Assembly: GCA_965262175.1 (NCBI GenBank)
Contig: CBDHES010000002.1
Location: 1,248,315-1,312,314 of the forward strand
Source: Acidimicrobiales bacterium
GTDB taxonomy: Bacteria > Actinomycetota > Acidimicrobiia > Acidimicrobiales > SZUA-35
Direction: 5' to 3'
Length of the DNA stretch: 64,000 bases
In this document: one piece after another, positions 5,890 to 63,954 of the stretch
Layout of the letters: each line of letters starts with the position of its first letter
Numbering within the stretch: position 1 is the first letter of the stretch
Position numbers and translations under genes: made by a program
Notes under the pieces: model-generated
Told to the model about the DNA's origin: nothing
Seen by the model: only the letters and a program-made list of their open reading frames with translations
The model's database searches: none

Positions 5890-5955
5890 GCCTCGACGCT
5901 ACGGCACGATCTTCGACCGATCATCATCCCCGGGTGCCATCCAGGGTCGTCCCGG

Positions 5956-5984
5956 GGGACGATCGTCCCGGCGGACGATCGTCC
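5956..5984. promoter_or_regulatory. Two tandem copies of the perfect 12-bp palindrome GGACGATCGTCC (centres ~16 bp apart) in the divergent promoter region between 5392..5889(-) and 6116..6949(+); candidate operator
   Basis: Direct reading: gggacgatcgtccc at ~5956-5969 and ggacgatcgtcc at ~5973-5984. A second direct repeat, cgtttcgaccg x2, lies at ~6058-6090. Confidence 0.35.
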
Positions 5985-6115
5985 CGGCGGCCCTCCGGCG
6001 GTGGTGTGCGACCCGGGCCGCCCGAACCGACCCGACCGGACCGGTCCGGGCGGCCGACGTTTCGACCGGCCGGCGTTTCGACCGACCGTCGGCCGGGCTG
6101 GAAAGATGAACCGCC

Positions 6116-6949: not shown

Positions 6950-6975
6950 CACCCCGCGTCGCTATCCTCGACGAC

Positions 6976-7500: not shown

Positions 7501-7517
7501 CCGGTACCCTCGACGAC

Positions 7518-8051: not shown

Positions 8052-8118
8052 GCCGACCGGGCGATCATCGCTGGCGGCTCGGCGACACCGGGCACCGGAG
8101 CCGGGCCGTGGCCGCCGA

Positions 8119-15223: not shown

Positions 15224-15345
15224 CGCTCCATCGTACGCCCGGCCGCCCGCCGGATCGTCCGCCGCTCCACTACCGTGAACTCCTCGGTCGAGGCCATCAC
15301 GGCTGGGTCACCGATCGGAACGTCGGGCAAGGGTGGAGCGACAGG

Positions 15346-23328: not shown

Positions 23329-24149
23329 GGCCGTGGTTGGCGCTCTGGGCGCTGGCGATCACCGTCGTCGGCGGTGTGGCGGTCCTGGTCGGCGTGCCCC
23401 CGGTCGTCGGCCTTCCGGCGGTGATCGGCGCCCTCCTCGTCGCCCCCGCCCTCGCCGCGGCCCGCCATCTCCCCGACGAACGGGTCCTCGACCTGGTCGC
23501 CCTGGTGACCATGTTCTCGATCGGGCTCCTCGTCGTCGTCTCCGGGTTCCTGGCCCTGCTGTCGGCCTGGTCGGGGAGCACGGCGCTGTTCATCATCGGC
23601 CTCGTGACCGTCACCCTGGCCCTCGCTCCGACACCCGGATGGGCCGACCGCCTGACCGGCCTCCCGCCGGTCAGGGACGACGAGGTCACCGTCCGCGTCC
23701 TGTGGTTCGACGGCCGCCTCTTCTGCCAGCTGTCGGTCGATCGGGTCTCGGGGGCGATCGTCGGCCTCGACCTCGGCCGCCATCCGAACCCGGCGTGGGC
23801 CACCGCCATGCCGACCACGGCCGCCCGGGCCGGCGTGATCCACGGCCAGACGGCGATCGAGGCGCTGATCGAGCACCACCCGACCCGCCACCGCAGAGGG
23901 CGGCTGCTGATCGACATCGAGCGTCAGCCCCGGCTGAGCCGAACCGACGACGAGCTCTACCTCTGGCTCGGTCCCGACATCGACGACCGCAGCCTCGACG
24001 ACGCAACGATCCACCACTGGGTGGTGGGGACCGTCCGGGACCGGCCGGTCGCGTTCGGGCTCACCCGATCCCGGGAACCGGTGGTGATCCGGGTCGGGCC
24101 GGAGGGCGGCGAGCAGCCGTGGGGGGCCCGCAGCGAGGTCCGTACCTAG
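23325..24149 (+). CDS. Hypothetical membrane protein (4 N-terminal TM helices, soluble C-terminal domain), translationally coupled to 20239..23328
   Basis: ATG 23325 overlaps the upstream stop (ATGA). Hydrophobic N-terminus, protein-like composition. Confidence 0.45.
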   Translation: MRPWLALWALAITVVGGVAVLVGVPPVVGLPAVIGALLVAPALAAARHLPDERVLDLVALVTMFSIGLLVVVSGFLALLSAWSGSTALFIIGLVTVTLALAPTPGWADRLTGLPPVRDDEVTVRVLWFDGRLFCQLSVDRVSGAIVGLDLGRHPNPAWATAMPTTAARAGVIHGQTAIEALIEHHPTRHRRGRLLIDIERQPRLSRTDDELYLWLGPDIDDRSLDDATIHHWVVGTVRDRPVAFGLTRSREPVVIRVGPEGGEQPWGARSEVRT

Positions 24150-29000: not shown

Positions 29001-31020
29001 TGGCTGCCACCAGCTCCATGGCGTCGGCGACGCCGTCGAGCTCGGCTCGTACGTCGCCCGCCGCCACCGACGAGTCGATCGCCGGCACCCGGGCCTCGAT
29101 GGCCGCCAGGTCGTCGTGGTAGTGGACGAAGGCTCCGTCGCTGGCCAGGTGCTCGGCCGCCTTGCGGGCCAGGTCATCGTTGGCATCGGTGGCCCGGGCC
29201 ACCAGCGCCGCCACCGCTTCCCCGTCGACCTCCCGCATCTCGGTGATGGTCTGCAGGTGGCCGAGCCGGTCCCGGATGGCGTCGAGGGCGGCGATGAAGT
29301 CCTCGGTCCGGGCCGGCCGGGACCGGCGGAGCTCGTCGAGGAACCGATCGAGGTCATCGGTGGCCTCGGCCACCGCGGCGGCCGCCGCCGCTCGGACCTC
29401 CTGGAGCCGCTCGAACTCGTCGATGACCGCCTCGGCGGCCATGCGGATGTCGTGGACCGGCGCCGCCAGGTCCCCGAAGGCGGTGTCGCCGATCCAGTGG
29501 TGGGTGTCGAGGACCCGGCCGGCCGAGCCGAGCAGGTCGCCGTAGACCTCGACCGAGGGCTCGAGGTCGGCCACCAGCCTGGTGAGCGACAGGGCGTCGG
29601 CGATGCCGGCCACCAGGCCCGGGTTCCCGACCCGGTCGAGGGGTCCACCCCGGCGGTGGTTGTCGGCGTACCAGTCGTCGGAGCAGAACGGTGTCGACCA
29701 GATCTGGACCGGGTGGACCCGGGTCGGTTCGGGTTCCTCCCGGAACGCGGCCATCGTCCCGTCGTCGAACAGGCAGTAGCCGTGGCACCAGATCGGGGTC
29801 GTCACGTCCTGGCGGACCAGGTTGTAGGGCAGGAGGATCGAGCGACCGTCCGACTGCTGGTGGAACACGTAGAGGACGTCCTCCCCGTTCGGGGACCGGA
29901 CGACCTCCAGCAGCTGCATGTCGGTCGGATCGAGGTCGAAGGTCCGGACCTCGCCGGTCCGGAGGTAGATCCCCTCGGGGAAGATCAGACCCTGGCCCTC
30001 GGGGAGCCGACGGAAGGCCTGACCCAGGGCGTCGAGGCGGAGCGCGGTTCGGGTCAGGAGGTTGACCACGAAGTGGCGCCGGGTCTGTTCCCGGTAGGGC
30101 AGCACCCGGATCAGGACCAGGTCGGCGCCGGCCAGGGCGTAGGAGATCTCACAGTCCTGGAGGCTCTGGTCGGCATCGAGCAGCCGTTCCGAGATCAGCA
30201 GCTCGCCGTCGTCGGTGGCGTCGGGGAGACGGAGGTCGAGGGTCCCCCCGAGGGGGTCGACGAAGACCCGACCGTCGATCGCCACGTAGCGGTTGGCGAC
30301 GTGATCGACCCGGGTCGTGGCGGCCCACTCGACGTCCTGGTGCGGGGGAAATCGGTGGTCCCGGTCGCCCCGATCGTCGGCGTAGGCCAGCTCGCCGCCC
30401 GGCCCCACCGTCCACCGCAGGACCCGGATGTCGGTGACCCCGGTCCCGGTCCGGAACACCGCCAGGAGCTTGTCGCCCCGGCGGTAGACCTGCTGGACCC
30501 GAGCGTCCTTGAAGTAGGTGTGGAGCTCGACGAAGTCCCGCCGGAACCGATCGTCATCGAGAGCCGAACCCGCCAGGCCTTCGGGGTTTGGGCTGAGGAC
30601 GATGGTGTCGGTGTCGTCGATCAGGTGGTGGACGCTGAAGACGTCCTCGGGTCGGAGCTCGCCCCGGACCCCGGCCTGGGCGTTGTAGGCCAGCACCATC
30701 TGGTCGCCGACCGCCTCGATGTCGCGGGGGACGACGTTGTTGTCGGTCCGGACCCGCTCCGTGGCCACCAGCTCGAGGTTGGCCGCCCCGTAGGTCTCGA
30801 TCCGCCGCTGGTTGAGGGCCTCGGCCCGACCGGCCAGCTCGGAGGCCGCCGCCTCGAGGCGACCCCGGAGCAGGCGGTAGGTGCTGGCCCCGACGGCGGC
30901 GGGCCCGCCGCCGTCACCGTTGGGGGACGGGTTGGACTCGCCGCCGTCGGCGGCCTCAGCGAGCCCGGCGGCCTCGCCGAGCCCGGCGGCCTCGGCGGCC
31001 GACGCTGCGGTGTCGGCCAT
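26065..31020 (-). CDS. Giant 1651-aa cytoplasmic protein with a C-terminal MoxR/AAA_5-type AAA+ ATPase domain and long predicted alpha-helical/coiled-coil regions; function unknown
   Basis: Walker A LLMLLSPPGYGKTTLV, Walker B VMLYLDDIQ, sensor-1/NP motif FAVVMAGNPYT, and an RFRVPDMLANR arginine region, all in the last ~350 aa. No TM segments. Its start overlaps the flotillin stop (TGATG) and its stop overlaps the yihY start (GTGA). Confidence 0.7.
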   Translation of the reverse strand: MADTAASAAEAAGLGEAAGLAEAADGGESNPSPNGDGGGPAAVGASTYRLLRGRLEAAASELAGRAEALNQRRIETYGAANLELVATERVRTDNNVVPRDIEAVGDQMVLAYNAQAGVRGELRPEDVFSVHHLIDDTDTIVLSPNPEGLAGSALDDDRFRRDFVELHTYFKDARVQQVYRRGDKLLAVFRTGTGVTDIRVLRWTVGPGGELAYADDRGDRDHRFPPHQDVEWAATTRVDHVANRYVAIDGRVFVDPLGGTLDLRLPDATDDGELLISERLLDADQSLQDCEISYALAGADLVLIRVLPYREQTRRHFVVNLLTRTALRLDALGQAFRRLPEGQGLIFPEGIYLRTGEVRTFDLDPTDMQLLEVVRSPNGEDVLYVFHQQSDGRSILLPYNLVRQDVTTPIWCHGYCLFDDGTMAAFREEPEPTRVHPVQIWSTPFCSDDWYADNHRRGGPLDRVGNPGLVAGIADALSLTRLVADLEPSVEVYGDLLGSAGRVLDTHHWIGDTAFGDLAAPVHDIRMAAEAVIDEFERLQEVRAAAAAAVAEATDDLDRFLDELRRSRPARTEDFIAALDAIRDRLGHLQTITEMREVDGEAVAALVARATDANDDLARKAAEHLASDGAFVHYHDDLAAIEARVPAIDSSVAAGDVRAELDGVADAMELVAATVGDLVVADPRDRTAVLEQVSGVLAELNRVRAALEGRTATLIEAETGAAFATELGLYGQTLAAVVARVDTPEACDDALARLLLQLEQLESSGPRTDAQLDELAARRDQLLETIGGKRQQLIDERQRTADRLVTAGARTLDRVADRGADLPGVDEVNGFFAADPMVGRVRSLVDQLRDLGEPVRADELQSRLGAVRDGALRAVRDRIDLYDGDAIRLGRHRFSVESRPRELTVVNDGDRLEAVLSGTDLRVAVDDPDLVGHRELWDRPLPSETPALYRAAFLAGDLLLDLLRRPAPEGRDVLEAVAGGDGRGADPSETALRLVRDAVDHRLDEGYDRGVHDLDAARLLTALAGPALAAGPLVTTAAARSRAIWAWARHLDDAARTRWAARGRAAAELDVGPEAIAELADDLRRDVDLAPTDARYLMAELVVPAPAGATGGGGPVFARPGLASARAVEVAGQAAVAAALTHLDADPDGTRALIAGYVARDCPPELVDDVVTELVTPELARRSIDVDLAVAVDGLAGQHPTISDGRLAVRVDELLAAVDDHRHESIPAHRAFTATRRAVLARLATTYRLDDLQPRVPEGFVRNQLIDRIYLPLIGDNLARQIGTVDDASGARSGLLMLLSPPGYGKTTLVDYVADRLGMALVKVSGPGLGHEVTSLDPARAPSATAAREIERINLAFALGSNVMLYLDDIQHTSPELLQRFISLCDAQRRIEGVIDGEATTFDLRGKRFAVVMAGNPYTESGERFRVPDMLANRADTYNLGDVVSGNDELFARSYLENALGANPILAPLVGRDRADLDELLRAGLADVDESRLTHAYSSAELGEVVAVIAHLRRVQAVVLAVNRQYIASAATDDRYRTEPPFLLQGSYRNMVRMASKLLPAMTEAEVEAIIDEHYLAESQSLTGAAEANLLKLDELRGRLDGAGRERWDDIVATFRRQQRLGGDDRDPTTRVVAAIEEVAVALRHGPSSTG

Positions 31021-32981
31021 CAGTCCTCGGCGGAGTGGCCGATCCGCCGAAGCAGGTCGGCCACGGTCAGATCACGGATGCCGTCCGACCCCAGGCCGGC
31101 GATCGCCTCGGCCAGGGTCGCCACGAGGTCCTTGTCGCCGTTCTGATAGGGGCCGAGGACGCCGGTCGCCACGTTCGACGACTCGACCAGCCCGTCGAGC
31201 CGCTTGCCGTTGCCGATGGCTCCGATCAGGGAGTCGACGAACATGTCGGAACCGCCGACGATGTCGATGTCGGCCGCTTCCAGACCGGCCTTGAGGGCCT
31301 CGGCCTGGGCGGTTGCGACCCCGATCGAAGCATCGACCTCGGCCAGGCGGACCTGGGTGTCGGCGTCCAGCTGGCGGATGAACTCCTCGTGCTCCCGCCC
31401 GACGCCCTCCAGCTCCTTCATCGCCTGGGCCTTCTCGGCCAAACCGCTCGCCTCGCCCCGCAGCTTGGCCTCGATGACGGCCGCCTCGGCGAGACCGGCC
31501 TCCCGCAGCTTCAGCGCCTCGGCCTCGCCGACCTGGCGGATGGCGGTGGCTCGGGCTTCCTCGACCTTGACGTCGGCCAGGCCCAGCTTCTCGTTGGCCA
31601 CCGCGGCGGCCTCCTGCACCTCGACCTCGGCCAGCCCGGGGGCCGCCGTCTCGGCCTGGATACCCTCGGCCCGCTTGATCTGGGCCTGGGCGGCGTAGTC
31701 GGAGGCCTCCAACTCGGCCTTGGCGAGGACGATCTGCTCGTTGGCCATGTGGGCGGCGGCCGATTCGGCGGCTTCGGCCGCCTTGATGTCCTTCACCAGG
31801 GCCGCCTGGGCGTCGGCCTCGGCGCTGATGATGACCGAGTCCCGCGAGCGGTTGGCGTCCTCGACCACCCGGAGGGTCTTGATCTCCTCCTCCTGGACGG
31901 CCACGGTCTTCTCGACCGCCACCCGGTCCCGGCGGATGTCGGCGATGGCCGACTTCTCCTCTTCAAGACTCTTCTCGGCCGACAGGGTTTCGACCCGGCG
32001 GCTCATCTCCTCGAGCTCCCGGGCCTTCTCGACCCGCTCGTGCTCGATGGCGATGACCCGCTCCCGGTTCTTGCCGGCGACGTCGATCTCCCGCTGGAGG
32101 TTCTCCCGCTCGATGCCGAGCTTCTGCTCGACCTCCAGCTTCGCCATCTCGGTCTTGAGCCGCTCCTCGGCCTCGACCTGGGCGGTGGTCGCCTCCTCCC
32201 GGAGCCGGACCGAGGTGACCTCACGGGCGTGGCGGGACTCGGCGTCGGCCTGCTGGCGCTCCAGCTCCAACACGGCCTCGCGGGTCTCGACGTTCTTGGC
32301 CGTGATCTGCTTCTGCTCGTCGTTCGACGCCACGTTGGTCGCCACGTGTTCGATGGCCGTCAACTCGGTGATCTTCCGGATGCCCTGGGCATCGAGGATG
32401 TTGTCCTCGTCGAGCTGCGAGAGCGGGGTCTGCTCGAGGTAGTCGATGGCCACGTCCTCCAGGGCGTAGCCGTTGAGGTCGGTGCCGATGACCGAGATGA
32501 TCCGGTCCCGGAACATGGCCCGCTCGGTGTACAGCGAGACGAACTCCATCTGCTTGCCGACCGTCTTGAGGGCCTCGGAGAACTTGGCGGCGAACAGCTC
32601 CTCCAGGGTCACCGGGTCCGACGCCCGCTCGGTGCCGATGGCCTGGGCGACCTTGATGACATCTTCCTCGGCCTTGTTGACCCGGACGAAGAAGTTGACC
32701 TTGATGTCGGCCCGGATGTTGTCCTGGCAGATCAGACCCTCCCGGCCCCGCCGGTCGATCTCGATCGTCTTGACCGAGATGTCCATGATCTCGGCCTTGT
32801 GGAGGATCGGGACGACGACCCGGCCGGTGAACGACACCAGGACCCTGCGGGTGGTGCTGATCACCATCGCCTTGCCCTGGGGGACCTTGCGGTACAGCCG
32901 GGACACGGCGAGCCCGACCGCGAGCACGACCGCCAGCAGCACCAGCACCGCGACGACCACCGTGATGATGATTGGATTCAT
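31020..32981 (-). CDS. Flotillin family (SPFH/band 7) protein, YqiK/FloT-like
   Basis: N-terminal TM helix, an SPFH domain, then a long Glu/Ala-rich coiled-coil typical of flotillins (EAEERLKTEMAKLEVEQKLGIERENLQREI). Real start ATG 32981 within table ORF 31020..33380. Confidence 0.85.
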   Translation of the reverse strand: MNPIIITVVVAVLVLLAVVLAVGLAVSRLYRKVPQGKAMVISTTRRVLVSFTGRVVVPILHKAEIMDISVKTIEIDRRGREGLICQDNIRADIKVNFFVRVNKAEEDVIKVAQAIGTERASDPVTLEELFAAKFSEALKTVGKQMEFVSLYTERAMFRDRIISVIGTDLNGYALEDVAIDYLEQTPLSQLDEDNILDAQGIRKITELTAIEHVATNVASNDEQKQITAKNVETREAVLELERQQADAESRHAREVTSVRLREEATTAQVEAEERLKTEMAKLEVEQKLGIERENLQREIDVAGKNRERVIAIEHERVEKARELEEMSRRVETLSAEKSLEEEKSAIADIRRDRVAVEKTVAVQEEEIKTLRVVEDANRSRDSVIISAEADAQAALVKDIKAAEAAESAAAHMANEQIVLAKAELEASDYAAQAQIKRAEGIQAETAAPGLAEVEVQEAAAVANEKLGLADVKVEEARATAIRQVGEAEALKLREAGLAEAAVIEAKLRGEASGLAEKAQAMKELEGVGREHEEFIRQLDADTQVRLAEVDASIGVATAQAEALKAGLEAADIDIVGGSDMFVDSLIGAIGNGKRLDGLVESSNVATGVLGPYQNGDKDLVATLAEAIAGLGSDGIRDLTVADLLRRIGHSAED

Positions 32982-32998
32982 GGTTCCCCTCTCTTGCG

Positions 32999-33616
32999 CT
33001 ATCGCAGGACGTCGACGTCGGGTGACACCAGGAACACCCCGTCGTCGACGTCGACGACGAGGGCCCGATCGCCCGAGGCGAGTTGGTTGCTGTCGAGGCA
33101 GCGGATCTGGACGAGGTGCGAGCCACCATCGGCGTCGGTGACCTCCCCCTGACCGAAGCCGGCATCGACCCGGCCGGTTCGCACGGTGCAGATACGACCG
33201 ACGAGGTCGCGATGCCCGGGGGGCGAGGGGGGCGAGAAGATCGGGCCGAGCACCTGGCCGACGCGGCCGGCGATGATCACGCCGACGATCAGGGCCACGA
33301 CGAGCGTGACGACGCCGACGGCAAGGCCGACGGCCCCGTCGACGCCGATGGCCAGCGACGCGATCGTGGTGATGACCCACCCGACGAGCGAGATGACGGT
33401 GACCACCAGGCTGAGCGGCATCAGGTGCAGATCGAGGCCGGTCAACAGCGCCCCGAAGCCCCCGACGCCGTCGCCGTCGAGCTCCACGCCACCGTCGGCG
33501 TCGCCGCCCTCCATGCCCAGAGCCGAGGTGACCGCCCAGTAACAGAGCGACACGGCGAGGGCGACGGTGAACACGACCGCGGGAAAGCTGGTGATCGCTG
33601 CCAGGAACTCGGTCAC
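32999..33616 (-). CDS. NfeD-like (YqiJ/YuaF-type) membrane protein with a C-terminal OB-fold, flotillin partner
   Basis: Three to four TM helices, then GRICTVRTGRVDAGFGQGEVTDADGGSHLVQIR...GDRALVVDVDDGVFLV, an NfeD-type beta-barrel motif. Immediately upstream of the flotillin gene, as in yqiJ-yqiK and yuaF-floT. Confidence 0.65.
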   Translation of the reverse strand: MTEFLAAITSFPAVVFTVALAVSLCYWAVTSALGMEGGDADGGVELDGDGVGGFGALLTGLDLHLMPLSLVVTVISLVGWVITTIASLAIGVDGAVGLAVGVVTLVVALIVGVIIAGRVGQVLGPIFSPPSPPGHRDLVGRICTVRTGRVDAGFGQGEVTDADGGSHLVQIRCLDSNQLASGDRALVVDVDDGVFLVSPDVDVLR

Positions 33617-41400: not shown

Positions 41401-42870
41401 CTAGCCCCCGGCGGCGGACCGCTTGGCCGCCAGGAGCTGGGCCACGACCTTGCCGTCGGCCTGGCCACGGGTCGCCTTCATCACCTGGCCGGTGAAGAAC
41501 CCCTGGAGCTTGCCCCGTGTCTTGTCGTCGCCCCCGACGAACCGCTCCCACTCGTCGGCGCTGTCGGCGATGATGCCGTCGAGGACCGCCTCCAACTCGG
41601 AGGTGTCCATCGCCTCGAAGCCTCGGGCCTCGGCGATCGCCGCCGGCTCGGTCCCCGTCTCGACCATCTCGGCCAGCACCTGCTTGGCCTGGGTGGCGGT
41701 CAACGACCCCGAGGTCTCCATCTCGATCAAGGCCGCGAAGTGACCCGGATCGAGGTCGGCGGCCCCGTCGACCGCCAGGTTGTTGGCGACGTGGGTCGCC
41801 ACCCGGTCGGGGTCGGCCCCAGCGTCGATCGCCGCCCCGGCCAGCTCGTCGAGGCCCCGGAGGACCACCATGGCCGCGCCGTCGGGAGCCACGCCGGCGT
41901 CGATCAGGGTCTGGCGCCGGTCCCGGGGAAGCGCCGGCAGGGCGGCCCGGATCTCCTCGACCCACGCCGGATCGGGCTCGATCGGCACCAGGTCGGGATC
42001 GGGGAAGTAGCGGTAGTCCTCGGCCTCCTCCTTCGACCGACCGGGCCGGGTCCGGCCGGCCTCCTCGTCCCAGTGGCGGGTCTCCTGGATCGGCCGCTCG
42101 CCGGCCTCGTACAGCTCGACGTGTCGCTTGGCCTCGTATTCGATGGCCCGACCCAGCGATCGGAGCGAGTTGACGTTCTTGATCTCGCACCTGGTCCGGA
42201 GCTCATCGGCCCCCGAGGGGCGCACCGACACGTTGGCGTCGACCCGCAGCGACCCCTCCTCCATCTTCCCGTCGCTCGCTCCCACCGCGACCAGGATCGA
42301 CCGCAACTCCTCGACGTACTCCTTGGCCTGCTCCGGGCCCCGGATGTCGGGGTGGCTGACGATCTCCACCAGGGGCACCCCGGCCCGGTTGTAGTCGACG
42401 AGGGAGTAGTCGGCATCGCTGATCCGCCCCGACGCCCCGACGTGGGTCGTCTTGCCGGTGTCCTCCTCGAGGTGGGCCCGCTCGACGCGGATCGTCGACC
42501 CCGACGGCAGCTCGAGGCGGCCATCGACGTTGAGCGCCTCCTCGTACTGGCTGATCTGGTAGTCCTTCGGCATGTCGGGGTAGAAGTAGTTCTTCCGGGC
42601 GAAGACGCACCGTTGGATGGTGCAGTCGAGGGCCAGTCCGATGCGGATGGCCAGCTCGATGGCTCGACCGTTGACCACCGGCAGGGTGCCGGGCAGCCCG
42701 AGGCACACCGGGTGGACGTTGGTGTTGGGCTCGCCGCCGAACACGTTGCGGGCCGGGGAGAACATCTTGGTCTCGGTGGCCAGCTCGGCGTGGACCTCGA
42801 GCCCGATCACGAACTCCCAGTCGCCGGGGAGCAGGGCCGACTCGTCGACGGCGGTGTCGGTCGTGGTCAT
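41401..42870 (-). CDS. gatB: Asp-tRNA(Asn)/Glu-tRNA(Gln) amidotransferase subunit B
   Basis: GatB N-terminal catalytic domain (VIGLEVHAEL, KNYFYPDMPKDYQISQ) and a C-terminal GatB/YqeY domain. Real start ATG 42870 overlaps the gatA stop (ATGA). Confidence 0.9.
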   Translation of the reverse strand: MTTTDTAVDESALLPGDWEFVIGLEVHAELATETKMFSPARNVFGGEPNTNVHPVCLGLPGTLPVVNGRAIELAIRIGLALDCTIQRCVFARKNYFYPDMPKDYQISQYEEALNVDGRLELPSGSTIRVERAHLEEDTGKTTHVGASGRISDADYSLVDYNRAGVPLVEIVSHPDIRGPEQAKEYVEELRSILVAVGASDGKMEEGSLRVDANVSVRPSGADELRTRCEIKNVNSLRSLGRAIEYEAKRHVELYEAGERPIQETRHWDEEAGRTRPGRSKEEAEDYRYFPDPDLVPIEPDPAWVEEIRAALPALPRDRRQTLIDAGVAPDGAAMVVLRGLDELAGAAIDAGADPDRVATHVANNLAVDGAADLDPGHFAALIEMETSGSLTATQAKQVLAEMVETGTEPAAIAEARGFEAMDTSELEAVLDGIIADSADEWERFVGGDDKTRGKLQGFFTGQVMKATRGQADGKVVAQLLAAKRSAAGG

Positions 42871-44318
42871 GACGGGGCCACCTCCTCCAGGGCTCGGGCG
42901 GCCCGGAACATGTCGATCTCCCCCAAGGCCGGCGCCATCACCTGAACCCCGATCGGCAGGCCGGCGTCGTCGGCTCCGAACGGGACCGAGATCGCCGGGT
43001 GGCCGGTGAGGTTGGACGGGATGGTGCACACGTCGTTGAGGTACATGGTGAGCGGGTCGGCCTTCGCCCCCAGCTCGAACGCCACGCAGGGGGAGGTCGG
43101 GCACAGGAGGAGGTCGTGGTCGGCGTAGACCTCCTCGAACTGGCGGATCATCACCGTCCGGACCCGCTGGGCCCGACCGTAGAAGGCGTCCCAGTAGCCG
43201 GCCGACAGGGCGTAGGTGCCGAGCATGATCCGCCGTTTGACCTCGTCGCCGAAGCCGGCGGTCCGGGAGGCGGCCATCATCGAGGCGGTGTTGGGGCCGT
43301 CGCGCCGGAGCCCGTAGCGGACGCCGTCGTAGCGGGCGAGGTTCGACGACGCCTCGGCCGGGGCGATCATGTAGTACGCCGACAGGCCGGCCACCGTCGA
43401 GGGGACCGACACCGACTCGACCTTCGCCCCTGCGGCAGAGAGCCGTTCTGCGGCTTCGGTGGTCCGGGCCAGGACCTCGGGCTCGAACCCGTCGAGGCCC
43501 TGCCCGCTGAGCTCGTCGATGATCCCGATCCGCAGCCCGTCGACCCCGTCGTCGAGATGGGCCGCCAGCTCCGGTGCTGGTCGGGGGATGGAGGTCGAGT
43601 CGCGGGGGTCGTGACCGCCGATGACCTCCAGCGCCGCTGCCGCGTCGGCCACCGAGGTGGTGAACGGACCGATCTGATCGAGGGAGCTGGCGAAGGCGAT
43701 CAACCCGTAGCGGCTGACCCCGCCGTAGGTCGGCTTCACCCCGACGACCCCACAGAGCGAGGCCGGCTGGCGGATCGAGCCGCCGGTGTCGGAGCCGAAC
43801 GCCAGGGGGACGAACCCGGCGGCCACCGCAGCGGCCGAACCGCCCGAGGAGCCACCGGGGACCCGGGTCGGGTCGTGGGGGTTGCGGGTCGGCCCGAACG
43901 CCGAGTTCTCGGTCGACGAGCCCATGGCGAACTCGTCGAGGTTGGTCTTGCCGATCACGATCGCCCCCGCCGCGCCCAACCGTTCGACGACCGTCGCGTC
44001 GTAGGGGGGCGTCCATCCCTCGAGGATCCGCGACGAGCAGGTGGTCGGCACGCCTCGGGTGCAGAAGTTGTCCTTCAGGGCGACCGGGACCCCGGCCAGG
44101 GGCCCGGGGTCGTCGCCGGCCGCCACCGCGGCGTCGACGGCCGCCGCGGCGGCCCGGGCCTCGTCGACCATGACGTGGTTGAAGGCGTTGAGCTCGCCGT
44201 CGCCGGCCTCGATGCGGGCCAGGTGATCGTCGATGACCTCGACGGCTCCGACATCGCCGGCCCGCACGGCGGCGGCCAGCTCGATCGCCGTCCGCACCGG
44301 GCTGGACGCCGGGCTCAC
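42867..44318 (-). CDS. gatA: Glu-tRNA(Gln) amidotransferase subunit A (amidase signature family)
   Basis: Amidase signature GGSSGGSAAAVAAG and the Ser-cisSer-Lys triad region. GTG start at 44318 overlaps the gatC stop (GTGA). Confidence 0.9.
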   Translation of the reverse strand: MSPASSPVRTAIELAAAVRAGDVGAVEVIDDHLARIEAGDGELNAFNHVMVDEARAAAAAVDAAVAAGDDPGPLAGVPVALKDNFCTRGVPTTCSSRILEGWTPPYDATVVERLGAAGAIVIGKTNLDEFAMGSSTENSAFGPTRNPHDPTRVPGGSSGGSAAAVAAGFVPLAFGSDTGGSIRQPASLCGVVGVKPTYGGVSRYGLIAFASSLDQIGPFTTSVADAAAALEVIGGHDPRDSTSIPRPAPELAAHLDDGVDGLRIGIIDELSGQGLDGFEPEVLARTTEAAERLSAAGAKVESVSVPSTVAGLSAYYMIAPAEASSNLARYDGVRYGLRRDGPNTASMMAASRTAGFGDEVKRRIMLGTYALSAGYWDAFYGRAQRVRTVMIRQFEEVYADHDLLLCPTSPCVAFELGAKADPLTMYLNDVCTIPSNLTGHPAISVPFGADDAGLPIGVQVMAPALGEIDMFRAARALEEVAPS

Positions 44319-44644
44319 GGCTCCTCCCCGAGGGCGGGGGGAACCCGGAACAGGCCGTCTTCGATGGCCGGGGCGGCTTGCAGCGCCTCGTCTCGTACCC
44401 CGGCCGGGGCCTCGATCTCGTCGGGCCGGAAGACGTTCACCAGGTGGTACGGGTGGGCGGTGGGCGGCACCCCTTCGACGTCGATCGCCTGCAGCTCCCG
44501 GGCCCGATCGAGCACCGCGGCGAGCTGACCGGTGAACCGGTCGAGCTCGTCGTCCCGCAGGTCGAGCAGGGCCAGCTGGGCGACCTTGGCCACGTCGTCC
44601 CGGGTGAGGGCGACGCTCGCGGTTTCGGCGGGCTCTTCGGTCAC
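44315..44644 (-). CDS. gatC: Asp/Glu-tRNA amidotransferase subunit C
   Basis: 109 aa. Position and size fit the first gene of a gatCAB operon. Confidence 0.8.
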   Translation of the reverse strand: MTEEPAETASVALTRDDVAKVAQLALLDLRDDELDRFTGQLAAVLDRARELQAIDVEGVPPTAHPYHLVNVFRPDEIEAPAGVRDEALQAAPAIEDGLFRVPPALGEEP

Positions 44645-44698: not shown

Positions 44699-45133
44699 GT
44701 GGCGGGCGTGTCTGCCTATCCGTTCCTGTCCGCCGAGTGGATCGAGGCGGCCCGACAGCTCCGGGCCCGCCACGCCGACGACCTCCCCAGCCCACCGGCC
44801 GAGGTTCGCCTGAACGTCGTGGTGACCGACATCCCCCACCGGGACGGCGACCTCCAGGGCCACATCGACACGACCGACGGCCAGGGCGTGATCATCGAGG
44901 AGGGTCACCTGGACGAGGTCGACCTGACCGTCACCCTCGACTACGGGACCGCCCGGTCGGCGTTCATCGAGCGGGACCAGCAGGCGGTGATGCAGGCGTT
45001 CCTCGGGGGGAAGATCCTCGTCGACGGCGACGCCAGCGGGCTGCTGGCCCTCCAGGCGGCGCCGCCCGAGCCCGACGAGCGGGCCGCGTCGATCTACGCC
45101 GAGATGCTGGCCTTCACCGCCGACGACGCCTGA
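44699..45133 (+). CDS. SCP2 sterol-binding domain protein
   Basis: C-terminal SCP2-like pattern (MQAFLGGKILVDGDASGLL). The start is uncertain, GTG 44684 or 44699. Confidence 0.5.
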   Translation: MAGVSAYPFLSAEWIEAARQLRARHADDLPSPPAEVRLNVVVTDIPHRDGDLQGHIDTTDGQGVIIEEGHLDEVDLTVTLDYGTARSAFIERDQQAVMQAFLGGKILVDGDASGLLALQAAPPEPDERAASIYAEMLAFTADDA

Positions 45134-45200
45134 TCGGCCACGCTGATCGGCCGCGCTGCTCGACCGGCGGCGGCACCGGTCCCGGCGGGCCAGCTCGGGC

Positions 45201-48200
45201 CTAGGGGGCGGGCTCGGTCCGGAGGTCGACGGGACTGGTCCGCCGGTGGATCTCGCCCTCGGCCGGTGCCGTCGAGACGACGACGCCATCGTCGGGCCCG
45301 GTGATCGTGCCGGCCACGAAGCCGGCCCGTTCGAGGGCGGCCACGGCATCGGTCACGTCCAGGCCGACGACGTCGGGGACCTCGCCCCGCCGAGCCCCGG
45401 ACGACACCACGATCGTCACCTCGTCGCCGGGGGCCACCATCGCCCCCACCGGAGGATCGGTGTCGACCACGACCCCGGCCTCGTACCGATCGGAGTGCGC
45501 CGAGGCCTCCGACACCGACAGACCCAGCTCGGCGGCCAGCTCGGCGGCCTCCTCCCCGGACCGGCCGACGAGGTCGGGCAACGGTTCGACGCTCCCCCGA
45601 TCGTCGGGCCCTTCGGCGGCACCGCCTTCGGACGGCTCGGTCACGTCGCCGTCGTCGGCGTCGGCAGTGTCGCCGTCGGCAGTCGGCGTCGGCGTCGGCG
45701 TCGGGGAGTACGGCATCGCCAGGGTCGGGTGCGACGGAGACGACGATCGTCAGCCGTTCGCCCTCGGCCAGCTCGACGCCGGGGCCCGGCTGCTGGTCGA
45801 CGACGAGGCCGGGGGCCAGGTCGTTCTCGGGCCGCTCGGTCATCGACAGCTGCCAGTTGTTGCGGAGCGCGTCGACCTCGACGTCGCCGACCGGGCCACC
45901 GATGTAGTCGCCGACGGTCGCAGGGCCTGCGGTGTCGCCGGCCTCCGAGGTGACCGCCGAGACCGACGTCTCGGTCTCCGCCGTCTCGCCGGGGAGCCCG
46001 GTGCCGGTGAGGTAGTAGGCGACGACGCCGGCGACCACGGCGATGAGGACCACGACGAGGGCCGAGACCAGCCATCGGCGCCGTGAGCCGGTGGTCGGTC
46101 CGGTCCAGGCCGGATCGGGGGCCTCGCCCAGTCGGGCCGATTGGAGCCGGATCGATGCCGCGGCGACCGGGGTCGTCGGTTGCTCCCCGGTGTCGCCGGA
46201 GAGCCGGGTCAGCCGGACCGGCCGTGGGGTCTCCGAACCTCGGACCCGGGCCCGGGGGCGGCGGCGGCCGCTGTCATCGGCCTCGGGAGCCGGACCGGTG
46301 GCGGGGTCGTCGGTCCGCCGTTCGGCCAACTCGAACATCGACCGACCGTCCGATCGGGGCGGGATCGTCGGTTCCGGCTCGGTCGACGGTGGGCGCTCCG
46401 GCTCGGCGAACGGCGACCGATCGACGGGCGCCGGCAACGGGGCCGGCCACGCTGGTGCGCCTGGGCTCGAACCGTCGAGGTCGCGCTGGGGCAGCCAGGC
46501 CGGCGGGGGCTCGACCGACCCGTCGCCCTCATGGGGTGGTGGCCAGGGCGGCGACGCCGTTGCCGGCGTGTCGTCGCCAGGGGCGGCGATCACCAGTCCG
46601 TCGCCGGTGTCGATCTCCACCACGATCTCGGCGAAGGGGTCGGCCGCGACGGTGGGGTGGACCGGGTCGACCTGGCGGTCGGGGTCGGCAGGGCGGGCGG
46701 TGTCGGCAACCTGGTCGGTGCCGGCGAGCCGGTCGGTGTCGGCAATGCGGTCGGGGTCGGCAGGGTCGGCAAGCCGGCGGAGTCGGCAGGGTGGGCGGTG
46801 CCGTCTGGCTCGACGGTCGACTCGTACCGCCGATCGTCGAGCGGGTGCCATCGGGGCTCCGACCAGGGACCCTCGGTCCCGGCGTCGGACCAGTCGGCGG
46901 TCGACGGGTCGAGCTTGGAGTGATCCAGCCACGACGGGGCGCTCGGTGCCCGTTCGAGCGCGTCCAGGTCCAGGTCCGGGTCCAGGCCGGAGCGGCGGTT
47001 GAGCTCGGCTGGTTCGGCCGGCGCGGCCGGTCCGGCGAGCGGTTGGCCGGCGGCACCGATCACCTCGACACCATCGTCGTCGTCGGGCCCGTCGCCGTCC
47101 TGGTCGTGGTCGGGCATCGGCGGAGGCGGCCAGTCGGTCGAGGCCGACGACCGGTCTCGACCATGCTCATCGCCGAGGACGGTCAGCTCGGGGGCCGGCC
47201 ACGACCCGATGACCTCCGGCGGCGCGCCGAAGGGGCCGTGGGTGTGCGACGGGCGCTGGATCACCTGCGACTTGAGGCCCTCGGCAGCCACCAGGTCCTC
47301 GTCGAGGTCGGCGCCGACCCCGGAGGAGCGGCCGGCAAGGAGATCGAGGTCGGCCAGACGCCAGGTGTCGAGGCCGAGATCGACCACCGGGTCCTCGCCG
47401 GCTGGCGGGCGGGGGATCGGGATGATCGGGGGCGGTGACACCGGCTGGACGGTGGGGTCGCCTCGGGGGCGATCGTCCAGCTCGGTGACCGGGATGAGCG
47501 GCAACCGTTCGGGGCGGGGCAGCGAGCGGGCGGCAGCGGTCAGGGATTCGACGAGCTCGGTGGTCGACGGTCGGAGCGCCGGATCCGCTCGCCCGGCTGG
47601 TCGGAGCGCCTCGCCGAGCGCCCCGAGCGGCCCGAAGCCGTCGAGGTCCTGATCCTGGCGCAGGCGAAGGGTCGCCACCGCGGTCTCGCCCACCAGCGGC
47701 ACCCGGCCGGTGACCGCCTCGAGGATGGTGACGGCGAGGGAGTAGGCGTCGGCCCGACCGTCGACCGGATCGCCGTCGGCCTGTTCCGGTGCGGCGTAGC
47801 GGGCCGTCCCGATCAGGACCCCGCCCGGATCGGTCCACGTCGACTCGGCGATCGCCCGGGCGATGCCGAAGTCGGCGATCCGCAGGCGGCCCTCCTCACC
47901 GAACAGGAGGTTGCCCGGTTTGATGTCCCGGTGGACCCATCCCAGCTGGTGGGCGTAGCTCAGCCCCCGCGCCACCTGGAGGGCGACCAGGAGCCCCTGG
48001 GACGGGGTGAGCAGCGCCGGGCCCCGCTCGATCATGTCGAGCAGGCTGCCGCCGAGCAGGACCTCGGTGACCAGGTAGGCGGTCGGGTCCTCCCCCCAGT
48101 CGTGGACGGTGAGGAGGTTGGGGTGGCTCAGCTGGGCCGCCGCCTGGGCCTCGGCCCGGAATCGGCGGCGGAACCTCGGATCGTCGCTGAGGCCGACCCG

Positions 48201-48374
48201 GAGGCGCTTCACCGCCACCTGCCGGCCGAGCGACAGGTCCTCGGCGAGGAACACCCGGGACGATGAGCCCTCGCCGATCGCCGCCAAGAGACGGTACCGA
48301 CCCCCGAGGACCCGGCCCGCGACCTCGTTGTCGATCGATCTTGGTGGATCCTGATGGTGGTGGGATGCAGGCAT
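45201..48374 (-). pseudogene. PknB-like Ser/Thr protein kinase with TM helix and three PASTA domains, interrupted by two frameshifts (kinase frame ends 46590; TM+PASTA1 frame 45720-46800; PASTA2-3 frame 45201..45716)
   Basis: Kinase motifs VAVKRL, HRDIKPGNLL, DFG, and an APE-like AAPEQ. The TM helix is WLVSALVVVLIAVVAGVVAYYL. PASTA repeats are present in the two other frames. Both frame changes fall in GTCGGC(A) tandem tracts. Confidence 0.55.
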
Positions 48375-49006: not shown

Positions 49007-51109
<2,103 letters not shown>

Positions 51110-59196: not shown

Positions 59197-59616
59197 ATGA
59201 CCATGAGCACCACCACCATCGACGCCGCGGCCATCGCCGCCGACATCGCCGCCCGGTTCGAGCGGGCCTGGAACGCCGGCGACGGCGCGGCCTACACCGA
59301 ACCGCTGACCCCCGACGCCGACTACGTGACCATCCAGGGTCTCCACCTCGACGACCGGGACGACATGACGGCCGGCATCGCCGAGCTGTACGCCACGATC
59401 TACCGGGACAGCACGATGGCGATCGAACCGACACGGGTTCGTCTCCTCGGCCCGGGAACGATCGTGGCACAGCTCCGCCACGTCCTCACCTGCCCGGTCG
59501 GTCCGCTGGCCGGCACGACCACGACCCTGGCGACGGTCGTGATCGTCGACACCGACGACGGGTGGCGGGTCGCCGCCCTCCACAACACCGTCGTCGCCCC
59601 TCCCCCAGAGGAGTAG
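59197..59616 (+). CDS. SnoaL-like/NTF2-fold (DUF4440/SgcJ-like) protein
   Basis: 139 aa. ERAWNAGDGAAY...WRVAALHNT pattern. Stop-start overlap with the upstream gene (TGACATGA). Confidence 0.55.
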   Translation: MTMSTTTIDAAAIAADIAARFERAWNAGDGAAYTEPLTPDADYVTIQGLHLDDRDDMTAGIAELYATIYRDSTMAIEPTRVRLLGPGTIVAQLRHVLTCPVGPLAGTTTTLATVVIVDTDDGWRVAALHNTVVAPPPEE

Positions 59617-59635
59617 CCGAACCGCCCCGACAAAG

Positions 59636-59713
59636 CAGCCGCCCTAGCGGGCGTGCCGCCGGGCAGCCGCCCTAGCGGGCGTGCCGCCGGGCAGCCGCCC
59701 TAGCGGGCGGCTG
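59636..59713. repeat. 2.8 tandem copies of a 28-bp unit (cagccgccctagcgggcgtgccgccggg) between convergent genes; the last copy forms a 9-bp-stem hairpin (cagccgccc-tagc-gggcggctg); bidirectional terminator-like
   Basis: Direct reading. The hairpin overlaps the TAG stop of the tsaC-like gene. Confidence 0.5.
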
Positions 59714-60677
59714 CCTTGGTGAGGCGGTCGAGGACGGCGGGGCGGAGGGGACCCTTCGGCGGGGGGACGGCGAGGAGTCGCTCGACCCCGAGCCGGTCGG
59801 CGTCCCGCAAGGTCTCGTACAACCGGGCGGCGTAGCCCGCGGCGTCGGCCGGCAACCGCCACGACGGTTGGTGGTCGACCACCGCGGGAGCCATCACCCC
59901 GACGGTGTCGTCCAGTTCACCGGCCCGTTCGAGGGCAGCGATCTTCGCCGCCAACCGTCCCCGGTCGGTCACCACCTCGACCGCGGCGTCGGGGGCGTAG
60001 TGGGACGCCAACATCCCCGGGGCTCGGGCCGGGCCGTCCCGGCCGTCGACCACCACCTCTCCGAGGGCATCCTCCAGCTGGAGCCGGGTGATCGCCCCGG
60101 GGCGGAGGAGCGCTGGGCGGGGTCCGATGAGGTCGACGATCGTCGACTCGATCCCCACCGTCGTCGGCCCACCGTCGAGCACGATGTCGACCAGGCCGTC
60201 GAGATCGTCGAGCACGTGGGCCGCGGTGGTCGGGCTGACCCGGCCGAAGGTGTTGGCCGATGGGGCCACGACCGCCGAACCGAACCCCGACAGCAAGGCC
60301 AGGGCGACCGGATGGTCGGGCACCCGGAGCCCGATCGTCGCCTTCCCCCCGACCGCCTCCGAGGAGGCCCGGGCCGTCCGGGGGACGATCACGGTGAGCG
60401 GACCGGGCCAGAACGCCTCGGCCAGCGCCATGGTCCGGGTGGCGATCGCACCGGACAGGCGACCCCAGTCGGCCACGTGGTCGGCCGATGCCAGGTGGGC
60501 GATCAGCGGGTGTCCGACCGGGCGTCCCTTGGCGGCGAAGACCCGGGCCGAGGCGGGTCCGCTGGCGGCGTCGGCTCCCAGCCCGTACACGGTCTCGGTC
60601 GGGAAGGCGACCAGGCCCCCCGCCCGCAACATCTCGATCCCCAGCTCGACCCGCTCGGTGACGACGGTGACCGTCAC
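59700..60677 (-). CDS. tsaC: L-threonylcarbamoyladenylate synthase (Sua5/YwlC/TsaC family, with Sua5-type C-terminal domain)
   Basis: GGLVAFPTETVYGLGADA and SANTFGRVSPT motifs. GTG start at 60677 overlaps the mnmA stop (GTGA). Confidence 0.8.
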   Translation of the reverse strand: MTVTVVTERVELGIEMLRAGGLVAFPTETVYGLGADAASGPASARVFAAKGRPVGHPLIAHLASADHVADWGRLSGAIATRTMALAEAFWPGPLTVIVPRTARASSEAVGGKATIGLRVPDHPVALALLSGFGSAVVAPSANTFGRVSPTTAAHVLDDLDGLVDIVLDGGPTTVGIESTIVDLIGPRPALLRPGAITRLQLEDALGEVVVDGRDGPARAPGMLASHYAPDAAVEVVTDRGRLAAKIAALERAGELDDTVGVMAPAVVDHQPSWRLPADAAGYAARLYETLRDADRLGVERLLAVPPPKGPLRPAVLDRLTKAAAR

Positions 60678-61798
60678 GTCCCCGCCGCCGACGACCCCGA
60701 CGCGGCGGCCATCGCCCCGCCGACGACCAGGTCGCCGTCGTAGGCGACGATCGACTGGCCGGCCGCCACCCGCTGCTGGGGCTCGTCCCACCGAATGGTG
60801 CTGCCATCGAGGCGCCCCGGCCGGGTCGGACCGTGGGCCGAGCACTGGAACGCCAGCGGCCCGTCGACGGGACCGTGTGACCAGGCGACGTCGGTCACCG
60901 GCTGCTCCTCGACCAGGAGCGCCCCCCGGTGACCGACGGTGACGGTCCGGGCTGCGGTGTCGACGTCCACCACGTAGCGGCGCTGGGCGTCGCCGCCGAG
61001 ATCGAGGCCCCTCCGCTGGCCGATCGTGACGAGCTGCACCGACGGGACCTCCCCCACCCGGTTCCCGTCGAGATCGACGACGGTGGCGGGAGCGAGGGGG
61101 ATTCGATCGCCGAGGAACGCCTGCCGGCCGCCGACCGAGTGGATGAAGCAGACGTCCTGGCTGTCGGGCTTGTCGGCCGTCACCAGACCGTGGGCCGCCG
61201 CCAGCCGTCGGACCTCGTCCTTGGTCAGGTCACCGATGGGGAGCAGGAGCCGGGTCAACTGGGCCTGGTCGAGCATGTGGAGCACGTAGGACTGGTCTTT
61301 GGCCCGGTCGGCTCCTCGGCCGATCCGGGCCACGCCGCCGTCGTCGATCACGACCCGGGCGTGGTGGCCGGTGGCCACGGTGGTGAAGCCGAGCGCGTCG
61401 GCTCGGCGGAGCAGCTTGTCGAACTTGATGTGACGGTTGCACTCGACGCACGGGTTGGGGGTCAACCCGTCGGCGTGGGCCCGGACGTAGGGCTCGACGA
61501 CGTGGGCGTCGAAGTCGTCGCCGAAGTTGAACACGTGGTGGTCGATACCGATGCGGCGGGCCGCCCGCCGGGCGTCGTCGACGTCGGACACCGAGCAGCA
61601 ACCGGAGTCGCTCTCGCCACCCCAGAGCTTGAGGGTGACCCCGACGACGTCGTGGCCGGCCTCGACGAGGAGGGCGGCGGCGACCGACGAGTCGACCCCG
61701 CCCGACATCGCCACCATCACCGGCCCGGTCGGCCCGGTCGGCCCCTCGGCCGGGGGTGTCCTGCCGGGCCCCGTCGACGGGGTCGGGTCGGTGGTCAT
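60674..61798 (-). CDS. mnmA: tRNA 2-thiouridine(34) synthase (tRNA-specific 2-thiouridylase)
   Basis: PP-loop VAMSGGVDSS and the catalytic Cys pair (NPCVECN...CF). ATG 61798 overlaps the upstream desulfurase stop (ATGA). Confidence 0.85.
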   Translation of the reverse strand: MTTDPTPSTGPGRTPPAEGPTGPTGPVMVAMSGGVDSSVAAALLVEAGHDVVGVTLKLWGGESDSGCCSVSDVDDARRAARRIGIDHHVFNFGDDFDAHVVEPYVRAHADGLTPNPCVECNRHIKFDKLLRRADALGFTTVATGHHARVVIDDGGVARIGRGADRAKDQSYVLHMLDQAQLTRLLLPIGDLTKDEVRRLAAAHGLVTADKPDSQDVCFIHSVGGRQAFLGDRIPLAPATVVDLDGNRVGEVPSVQLVTIGQRRGLDLGGDAQRRYVVDVDTAARTVTVGHRGALLVEEQPVTDVAWSHGPVDGPLAFQCSAHGPTRPGRLDGSTIRWDEPQQRVAAGQSIVAYDGDLVVGGAMAAASGSSAAGT

Positions 61799-62970: not shown

Positions 62971-63954
62971 TTACTGGCGACCACGGATCGGCCCGGCCGG
63001 GCCGGGCCACGGAGCGCTCGGCGGCGCGACCGGCGGCGGCGCACCACCCCACGGGCCGCCAGGAGGACCACCCCACGGGCCGCTCGGGGGCGCGACCGGC
63101 GGCGCCGCACCACCCCACGGACCGCCAGGAGGACCACCCCACGGGCCGCCCGACGGGCCGCCCGACGGCGCGACCGGCGGCGCCGCACCACGCCACGGGC
63201 CGCCCAGGGGCGGGGGAGGGTGGGACGGCGGGGCGGCGCCGGGGCGGTTGCCGGGCAACGGCGGCCCGACACCGTGGACGACCGGCGGGGGGACCCCATC
63301 GGGCCAGTGCCGAGCCTGGTGGGCGTTGAGCACCGCGAGGAGGAACGGCTCGGCCCCGAGGCCCCTCGGCCGGACGGCCCCGATGGCCACCGCCACCCGG
63401 TCGGCGACCTGCTCGGTCATGGCGTACCGGGCCTCGGGCCGCATCTCGGTGATCCGCAGCATCAGCTCGCGGATCAGGGCGTACTGCCGGGCGGTGAGGG
63501 CGCCGGTGTCGAGGACACCGGCCAGCCCGGCGGTCTCGGCCGTGGTCGGGAAGTAGACCGGCCACTGGCCGACCCGGGGCACCCGGATCACGATCGTCCC
63601 CGCCGCCAGGTCGCCGAGGCGCTGGCTCCGGGCGGTCAGCAGTGCGAACGCCAGCGCCAGCAGACCGCCCGGGCTGGGGACGAAGAAGTCGAAGGTCGCG
63701 ATCATCGACCGGATGGCGCTGTGGCGGAGGCGGACGGGGCCGCCCTCGGTGGTCAGGACCCGGATCCCGAGAGCCGCCTTGCCGATCGTCCGCCCGTTCC
63801 ACCAGGTCTCGAGGATGATCGGATAGCCGTAGAAGATGGCGAACGCCAGGACGACGAGCACGATCGTGGCCAGCGTGGTGCTGGCGGCGGACACGATCCC
63901 GGTGAGGATCAGCCCGATGAACAGGGCCGTGAACTGGATGGTGACGTCGAGCAT
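62971..63954 (-). CDS. RDD family membrane protein with a C-terminal Pro/Gly/Trp-rich repetitive tail; N-terminus may extend beyond the window
   Basis: RDD-domain pattern (TIGKAALGIRV...DLAAGTIVIR) with TM helices. The tail repeats GGPWGGAAPPVAPPSGPW. Confidence 0.6.
   Translation of the reverse strand: MLDVTIQFTALFIGLILTGIVSAASTTLATIVLVVLAFAIFYGYPIILETWWNGRTIGKAALGIRVLTTEGGPVRLRHSAIRSMIATFDFFVPSPGGLLALAFALLTARSQRLGDLAAGTIVIRVPRVGQWPVYFPTTAETAGLAGVLDTGALTARQYALIRELMLRITEMRPEARYAMTEQVADRVAVAIGAVRPRGLGAEPFLLAVLNAHQARHWPDGVPPPVVHGVGPPLPGNRPGAAPPSHPPPPLGGPWRGAAPPVAPSGGPSGGPWGGPPGGPWGGAAPPVAPPSGPWGGPPGGPWGGAPPPVAPPSAPWPGPAGPIRGRQ
63010..63250. repeat. Imperfect ~60-nt tandem repeats encoding the GGPWGG/APPVAPP tail of the RDD protein
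   Basis: Direct reading: repeated caccccacgggccgccaggaggaccaccccacgggccg units. Confidence 0.5.

Follow-up and report, generated by a model that had tools for sequence, protein, structure and literature searches.

The window analyzed here is a 64,000-nt stretch of contig CBDHES010000002.1 from an Acidimicrobiales bacterium, with a GC content of ~71–75% and with gene content and nearest protein relatives that indicate Acidimicrobiia. On its minus strand, between positions 45201 and 48374, three frames of the open reading frame (ORF) list carry pieces of a PASTA-domain serine/threonine kinase gene. Specifically, a 594-aa ORF (46590–48374) matches Pfam Pkinase (136 bits), an ORF in a second frame (45094–46932) contains one Pfam PASTA match (28 bits), and a 171-aa ORF (45201–45716), which has its own ATG and shares the frame of the 594-aa ORF, contains two PASTA stretches (94 bits). 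PASTA kinases are characteristically encoded by one uninterrupted ORF; here, the kinase frame ends at a stop codon (46592–46590), and two frame changes are required to read the gene through. Once repaired at both points, the gene comprises ~1057 codons and encodes a protein of 1057 aa.

The frame path was traced in two ways. A frame plot of GC content at third codon positions (GC3), which is independent of homology, showed the coding frame passing from 2 to 0 and back to 2, with switches near 46790 and 45740–45700, and a change-point analysis, for which 18 intact genes from the same window supplied the codon-usage model, agreed on this path. A sequence-only reading made earlier had described a kinase, a linker, a transmembrane (TM) helix and three PASTA domains that can be read only by changing frame twice; the ORFs, Pfam matches, GC3 and codon usage confirm both the architecture and the two frame changes. 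Table 1 gives the position and sign of each of the two lesions, which lie ~1.09 kb apart.

Table 1. Segments, domains, repeat tracts and lesions of the kinase gene, in order along the minus strand (frames given as position p modulo 3).
Feature	Position	Strand	Details
Native 5′ part	46773–48374	−	Frame p mod 3 = 2; ATG at 48374, 534 codons; from ORF list, GC3 and codon usage
Hanks-type kinase domain	47553–48296	−	Pfam PF00069, 1.4e-39, residues 27–232; PF07714, residues 30–274; NF033483 positions 2–215
Linker motifs common to orthologues	47172–47204; 47112–47135; 46905–46934	−	SWPAPELTVLG; DWPPPPMP; SWLDHSKLDP
Repeat tract 1	46674–46803	.	Imperfect tandem repeats around minus-strand GCCGAC cores (Tandem Repeats Finder, TRF)
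Lesion 1	46771–46781	−	Net −1 shift (loss of 1 nt or gain of 2 nt)
Out-of-frame tail of the 594-aa ORF	46590–46772	−	60 Pro/Thr-, Arg- and Ser-rich codons plus TGA at 46590–46592
Middle segment	45682–46773	−	Frame p mod 3 = 0; rest of linker, TM helix, PASTA1, start of acidic (DA)n linker
Repeat tract 2	45653–45704	.	Hexamer (GACGCC)n array merging into a 15-nt ACTGCCGACGNCGAC repeat (TRF)
Lesion 2	45681	−	Net +1 shift; a single surplus base (minus strand, T; plus strand, A; gtcggcAgtcggc)
3′ segment	45201–45680	−	Frame 2 again; acidic linker, PASTA2 45399–45581, PASTA3 ~45210–45383, stop 45201–45203

In the native 5′ part, the kinase domain is followed by a long linker that is cytoplasmic and of low complexity; the N-terminus and linker motifs of this part align with those of P0002, an intact relative of 1171 aa. 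All of the catalytic motifs were found: VAVK (48207–48218), HRDIKPGN (47910–47933), DFG (47865–47873) and APE (47784–47792). Beyond the first lesion, rare codons (TTG, AGG, AGA, ACA, GCA) abound in the tail of the 594-aa ORF, and the middle segment, with a GC3 of 0.83–1.0, aligns with P0002 residues 826–1003. This segment contains the motif RPVRLTRL (46201–46224), the TM helix (46009–46074) and PASTA1 (45736–45918; Pfam PASTA, 1.9e-06). The TM stretch, WLVSALVVVLIAVVAGVVAYYL, corresponds to residues 764–789 of the repaired protein, and the sole strongly hydrophobic 19-residue stretch (WLVSALVVVLIAVVAGVVA; Kyte-Doolittle score 2.87) occurs in the middle frame only. The 3′ segment matches Pfam PASTA (PF03793, 4.2e-27) in two stretches, covers NF033483 positions 365–492 and is 50% identical to P0002 residues 1028–1168.

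Judged by this architecture, the product of the locus is a PASTA kinase of the PknB/PrkC/Stk1 type, with activity and ligand binding predicted. The expected role of such kinases is muropeptide or lipid II sensing and control of cell-wall synthesis and division. Like PknB (Mycobacterium tuberculosis Rv0014c), PrkC (Bacillus subtilis) and Stk1/StkP, it combines an N-terminal Hanks-type kinase, a single TM helix and C-terminal PASTA repeats. In contrast to PknB, in which the linker spans tens of residues, ~490 disordered cytoplasmic residues separate the kinase domain from the TM helix, and the gene also differs from the PknB/PrkC/Stk1 group in being interrupted twice, in lying in a ligA/gatCAB context and in scoring below the NF033483 cut-off.

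Orthologues, synteny and a second broken copy

Kinase and PASTA domains occur in one protein in 119 of the best 120 homologues, i.e., in all 119 that follow the 594-aa ORF itself, which is a singleton (P0001) in the protein collection. The nearest relatives (P0002, P0003, P0006–P0009, P0012 and P0013) are uninterrupted ORFs of 920 to 1241 aa whose linkers are of comparable length. All three window segments have collinear counterparts in P0002, which shares DWPPPPMP and SWLDxSKLDP with the first frame, the TM helix, PASTA1 and the motif RPVRLTRL with the second, and the acidic linker and two PASTA domains with the third. Like the window copy, P0002 thus has PASTA1 separated by an acidic linker from two more PASTA domains; where the window kinase has three PASTA domains and this acidic linker, relatives have a fourth PASTA domain in its place. 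Identity to the ligA-linked orthologues in the kinase domain ranged from 64 to 77%, and no relative among the matches exceeded ~65% identity overall (80% in the kinase domain).

Synteny gives the same picture. The P0002 locus (L025) has the order ligA, small divergent gene, kinase, small convergent gene, gatC and gatA, and in the window ligA lies at 49007–51100 and gatCAB at 41401–44644. Among the fetched loci, ligA is immediately upstream of the kinase in 22 related loci, and all 13 syntenic loci that hold the complete gene encode kinase and PASTA domains in a single ORF. The window copy shares with these Acidimicrobiia ligA-linked orthologues both the synteny and the motifs SWLDxSKLDP, WPPPPMP and RPVRLTRL, and is unlike them in requiring two frame changes. 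In addition, the 594-aa and 171-aa ORFs match separate parts of one NCBIfam model, NF033483 (PknB_PASTA_kin; positions 2–215 and 365–492). This model is also the best NCBIfam family for the repaired protein, which scored 321.7 bits, compared with 327.5 for P0002, 369.7 for P0006 and 404.9 for P0025; the equivalog cut-off of 450 bits exceeds the scores of the repaired protein and of these intact orthologues alike, and by this measure the whole lineage sits outside the curated equivalog.

Since P0002 is collinear, the synteny is the same and the orthologues are single ORFs, the window gene was once single as well; on this comparative evidence, the gene is ancestrally a single ORF. The comparison with orthologues that the sequence-only reading had proposed was thus carried out, and it places kinase and PASTA domains together in one protein, so that the window copy is split only by frame; the naturally separate kinase and PASTA genes that the same reading had named as a possible counterexample did not appear among either the homologues or the 13 syntenic loci.

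The linkers of the ligA-linked kinases (P0002, P0003, P0006–P0009, P0012 and P0013, and 46200–47400 on the minus strand of the window) share the motifs SWPAPxxTV[IL]G, WPPPPMP, SWL[DE]xSK[LI]DP and RPVR[LVI][TS]R[LV], which may be docking or phosphorylation sites and of which we know of no prior description. Shorter orthologues occur in the same synteny as well, as stop-to-stop ORFs of ~650–890 codons.

One orthologous kinase gene is broken too. In contig JACJWE010000003.1 (L001), from the metagenome-assembled genome (MAG) of Acidimicrobiia bacterium HK-STAS-ACTI-1, the gene at 5950–8330 runs through frames 1, 3 and 2: frame 1 encodes the kinase domain, frame 3 the TM helix plus three PASTA domains, and frame 2 the final PASTA domain. 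The neighboring ORFs are intact (690, 769, 484 and 420 aa). The 3′-most lesion of this gene, near 8175 (tctttgagggcc), lies in non-repetitive sequence, and its breaks differ in position from those of the window copy and do not compensate one another. Two independent assemblies present a kinase-only ORF followed by detached PASTA ORFs among intact neighbors. The breakage in L001 suggests that the gene can be dispensable in some lineages. A bolder reading takes the indels as real but not as dead ends: linker repeats prone to misalignment would time and again, and perhaps reversibly, detach the kinase from the module that anchors it in the membrane and senses peptidoglycan, so that some lineages or subpopulations would have a kinase that is constitutively soluble. 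This reading strikes us as very unlikely.

The same resemblance to L001 could be taken to mean that the split arrangement is functional, either as naturally separate genes or through programmed frameshifting or transcriptional slippage (−1, then +1) that yields the full-length protein. Translational coupling is conceivable, given that the TGA of the 594-aa ORF overlaps a GTG of the middle frame (GTGA, 46593–46590), although at this GC content the overlap is probably a coincidence, and the 171-aa ORF does have an ATG of its own. Products from three tentative starts of a middle-frame gene had no entry in the protein collection. However, the middle-frame product would continue into ~200 Arg-rich nonsense codons and end at 45094, and the 171-aa ORF has neither a signal peptide nor a TM helix, so its PASTA domains would remain cytoplasmic. 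We found no in-frame X_XXY_YYZ heptamer between 46900 and 46590 and no Rfam match in the window. Nor is the split conserved, the 13 orthologous loci and 119 homologues being single ORFs, and the breaks of L001 are non-compensating and at other positions. A functional arrangement accordingly has, in our estimate, only a marginal chance of being correct. A compensated frameshift with the middle part read in the kinase frame was ruled out by stop codons at 46592, 46211, 45842 and 45752.

The two lesions and their repeat tracts

Lesion 1 falls in tract 1, an array that TRF describes at 46674–46762 as 4.9 copies of an 18-nt period (score 101, 0% indels), with degenerate upstream extensions to 46803 that have periods of 9 and 26 and contain indels. 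Read in the native frame, the tract encodes a linker of the type (A-D-x-D-R-x)n, whereas the wrong frame gives an LPTPTx repeat. Its cores (GCCGAC, GCCGGC or GTCGAC) start at 46671, 46689, 46707, 46725, 46743, 46761 and 46770, with a spacing of 18 or 9 nt, and all seven read Ala-Asp in frame 0; the next upstream core, at 46787, lies 17 nt away and reads Ala-Asp in frame 2. The lesion thus falls within tccgccggctt, and the frame is restored if base 46773 is read twice (ggc|ctt). Its placement rests on this break in spacing because the codon-usage profile is flat over 46783–46741. From 46760 downward, codon usage prefers the Ala-Asp frame (frame 0) by 16 to 27 log-likelihood (lnL) units per 60 nt. 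By this margin, and by its abundance of rare codons, the Pro/Thr-rich frame was ruled out as native in tract 1. The sequence-only reading had put the first switch at 46600–46800, a range that includes the lesion; the tract it described as tandem GTCGGC-type units of 6 to 7 nt is instead an imperfect 9/18-nt array with GCCGAC cores.

Lesion 2 falls in tract 2, for which TRF gives a period of 6 (8 copies, score 61) and also a period of 15 (3.8 copies, with indels), and which encodes the acidic linker DADADAD...TADGDTADADDGD between PASTA1 and PASTA2. The GAC triplets in this tract follow one another at 6, 6 and 6 nt and then, at the lesion, at 7 nt, compared with 6 or 9 nt elsewhere. Omission of base 45681 gives ...PDADADAD|ADGDTADADDGD...; an equivalent description is the loss of "ac" from gacact. 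Here, the change point in codon usage is best at 45682–45679, ~9 lnL units above the next alternative (45736–45730). A Pro/Thr-rich native frame in tract 2 was disfavored by ~9–20 lnL units, a figure that leans on a few repeated codons. The second switch proposed from the sequence alone is likewise in a repeat, a GCCGAC-type tract in which base 45681 is the "A" of gtcggcA, but it lies ~20 nt below the 45700–45720 interval originally given.

With both lesions in tandem repeats and a predicted product that is a surface-exposed sensor, slippage in the GTCGGC(A) tracts might be imagined to switch the sensor domain reversibly in and out of frame, and this phase variation was among the explanations first offered. 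The linker repeats of the family do evolve fast, as in the GGRWDDD repeats of P0002. In contingency loci, such as the phase-variable genes of Neisseria and Haemophilus, the switch depends on a homopolymer or on many perfect copies of a unit whose length is not a multiple of 3. The window gene resembles them in having a frame change in repetitive DNA of a predicted surface-protein gene, but its units (6, 9, 15 and 18 nt) are imperfect and few. Because all of these periods are multiples of 3, the gain or loss of a unit keeps the frame, and the lesions are 1-nt breaks in spacing (17 versus 18 nt at lesion 1; 7 versus 6 or 9 nt at lesion 2) rather than changes in copy number. There is no homopolymer of ≥5 nt at either lesion, a restored protein would need two independent switches in phase, and the orthologues are read in a single frame. 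Repeat-mediated phase variation is therefore unsupported, and we consider it exceedingly improbable; even the regulated and functional-split readings together we regard as unlikely. The locus is most probably an ordinary broken gene, through recent mutation or assembly error, and not a genetic switch.

Possible causes: recent disruption or consensus error

Assembly slippage and a genuine pseudogene, which the sequence-only reading had listed side by side, both fit the data. The explanation we favor, at about even chances, is a recent real disruption, in which the indels exist in the DNA of the organism and the gene has very recently been inactivated or truncated; we judge this slightly likelier than a consensus error. 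One PknB/PrkC-type gene of ~1057 codons would have been broken by two very small indels (net −1 at 46781–46771 and net +1 at 45681), each at a site where imperfect GCCGAC/GAC repeats can misalign, and the first hit may have relaxed selection, so that the second was tolerated. The DNA as written could yield only a soluble fragment of 594 aa, in which the kinase domain and part of the linker are followed by 60 nonsense residues and from which the membrane anchor and the predicted peptidoglycan-sensing PASTA module are severed.

The rest of the window speaks for a real disruption. No frame break interrupts the 50 other coding segments (55,092 nt), and the Pfam domains within them are mostly matched over their full length. 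Homopolymers of ≥5 nt, 188 in these segments and 15 in the kinase gene, are all in frame, as are the other coding tandem repeats checked (e.g., those of a Pro-rich protein that starts near 15345). Repeats like those of the kinase gene are not unique in the window, in which TRF reported 33 rows with a score of ≥50. Because the rest of the window carries no raised frameshift load, the window does not give the impression of a generally poor assembly, and a second hit in the same gene is what would be expected if a first, inactivating one had relaxed selection. The broken copy in L001, with its intact neighbors, likewise favors real lesions.

Several observations weigh against a real disruption. 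The segments downstream of lesion 1 show no decay: GC3 remains at 0.83–1.0, PASTA identity to orthologues (40–52%) is within the family range, and deviations at conserved columns are ordinary, with 36 of 119 relatives having at least as many. Signs of relaxed selection after lesion 1 were thus not found in GC3, codon usage, PASTA identity or conserved columns, although very recent inactivation would escape this test. It follows that any inactivation must be very recent, and an artefact predicts an identical picture. Both lesions lie in low-complexity GC-rich repeats (77% and 75% GC), the kind of sequence in which consensus or polishing errors and errors from strain heterogeneity concentrate. 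The two shifts cancel out, and conservation of the gene and its synteny across the class lower the prior for a genuine loss. A second sequence from the same species was not found: all 12 window proteins looked up are singletons at 90% identity in the collection, a scan of Joint Genome Institute (JGI) metagenomes with low-complexity tracts removed returned relatives at ≤60% identity only and no same-species contig, and a scan of genome contigs with the repaired protein (by patterns that included the low-complexity PDADADAD) returned no close relative among the matches listed.

The rival explanation is an intact ~1057-codon gene in the organism, with both indels introduced by assembly or polishing across GC-rich imperfect repeats and perhaps worsened by co-assembled strains with differing linker repeat length. 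We hold this to be a serious contender, at somewhat less than an even chance. The lesions are of 1-nt scale and inside repeat tracts, the downstream segments look fully functional, and every short contig among the fetched loci that carries the complete gene has it intact, conserved and syntenic; the one other broken copy among the matches listed is in a large MAG contig, L001. The source of the window is itself one 3.08-Mb contig (3,076,076 bp) and so probably a long-read assembly. In the literature, the base rate is high, many putative pseudogenes in public genomes being assembly artefacts (Cooley and Wright 2024, PMC11017572). Compared with such frameshifted pseudogenes and artefactual "pseudogenes" (PMC11017572), the window gene is alike in being a conserved gene with small indels and intact orthologues, and is unlike in that the rest of the window has no raised frameshift load.

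On the other side, a consensus error has to account for the lack of any other frameshift in 55 kb of coding sequence despite 188 homopolymers of ≥5 nt and several coding tandem repeats. Neither lesion is at a homopolymer, the usual site of long-read errors. Two errors in one gene are improbable at a uniform low rate; given two, the chance that both fall here is ~0.05. Finally, the 3′-most lesion of L001 is in plain, non-repetitive sequence.

Surroundings of the gene and implications

The remainder of the window contains further repeats. The stops of the kinase gene (45201) and of a convergent 146-aa gene (45133) are separated by a gap of 67 nt that contains a 13-nt direct repeat (CTGATCGGCCACG; 2.5 copies, 45130–45162). 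A perfect 28-nt tandem repeat (GCAGCCGCCCTAGCGGGCGTGCCGCCGG; 2.7 copies, 100% match, 59635–59709) is intergenic, between a DUF4440 gene (59197–59613, plus strand) and a Sua5/TsaC gene (59703–60710, minus strand). At 63007–63171, 2.5 copies of a 66-nt unit lie within the low-complexity 3′ region of the ORF with the RDD-family gene, with no frame break seen, and at 15345–15600, the 5′ end of a membrane protein gene contains units of 30–33 nt rich in Pro, Gly and Ala that, unlike those of the kinase gene, are in frame.

Among the other genes, one in the minus-strand region 26086–33583 encodes a protein of 1640 aa that matches DUF3686 ("ATPase involved in DNA repair") over its full length (515 bits), also contains DUF7902 and an AAA domain, and gives a weak PADLOC match to LmuB (E = 1e-4). 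Immediately upstream on the same strand are genes for proteins of 650 and 193 aa, neither of which has a Pfam, NCBIfam or PADLOC match, and the genes of this region may form an uncharacterised DNA-repair or defence module. Two adjacent tandem genes of the Uma2 family (putative restriction endonucleases), in different frames at 7090–8048 on the plus strand, look like paralogues rather than one frameshifted gene because each covers most of the Pfam model. Large ORFs at 20347–24140 (plus strand) and 9940–12639 (minus strand), of 992, 273 and 900 aa, have no or minimal Pfam matches (AAA_22 in the 900-aa ORF) and no PADLOC matches.

For annotation, the locus is best described as one frameshifted PASTA kinase gene and a candidate pseudogene, not as a soluble kinase with small "PASTA proteins" and not as a phase-variable gene. 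If the lesions are artefacts, they would point to imperfect, GC-rich repeats in coding sequence as places where errors persist even though the assembly is otherwise clean. If they are real, a kinase with conserved sequence and synteny across Acidimicrobiia would only just have been deprived of its sensor half in this lineage, and the locus would offer a natural experiment, modest yet useful, on the dispensability of PASTA sensing.

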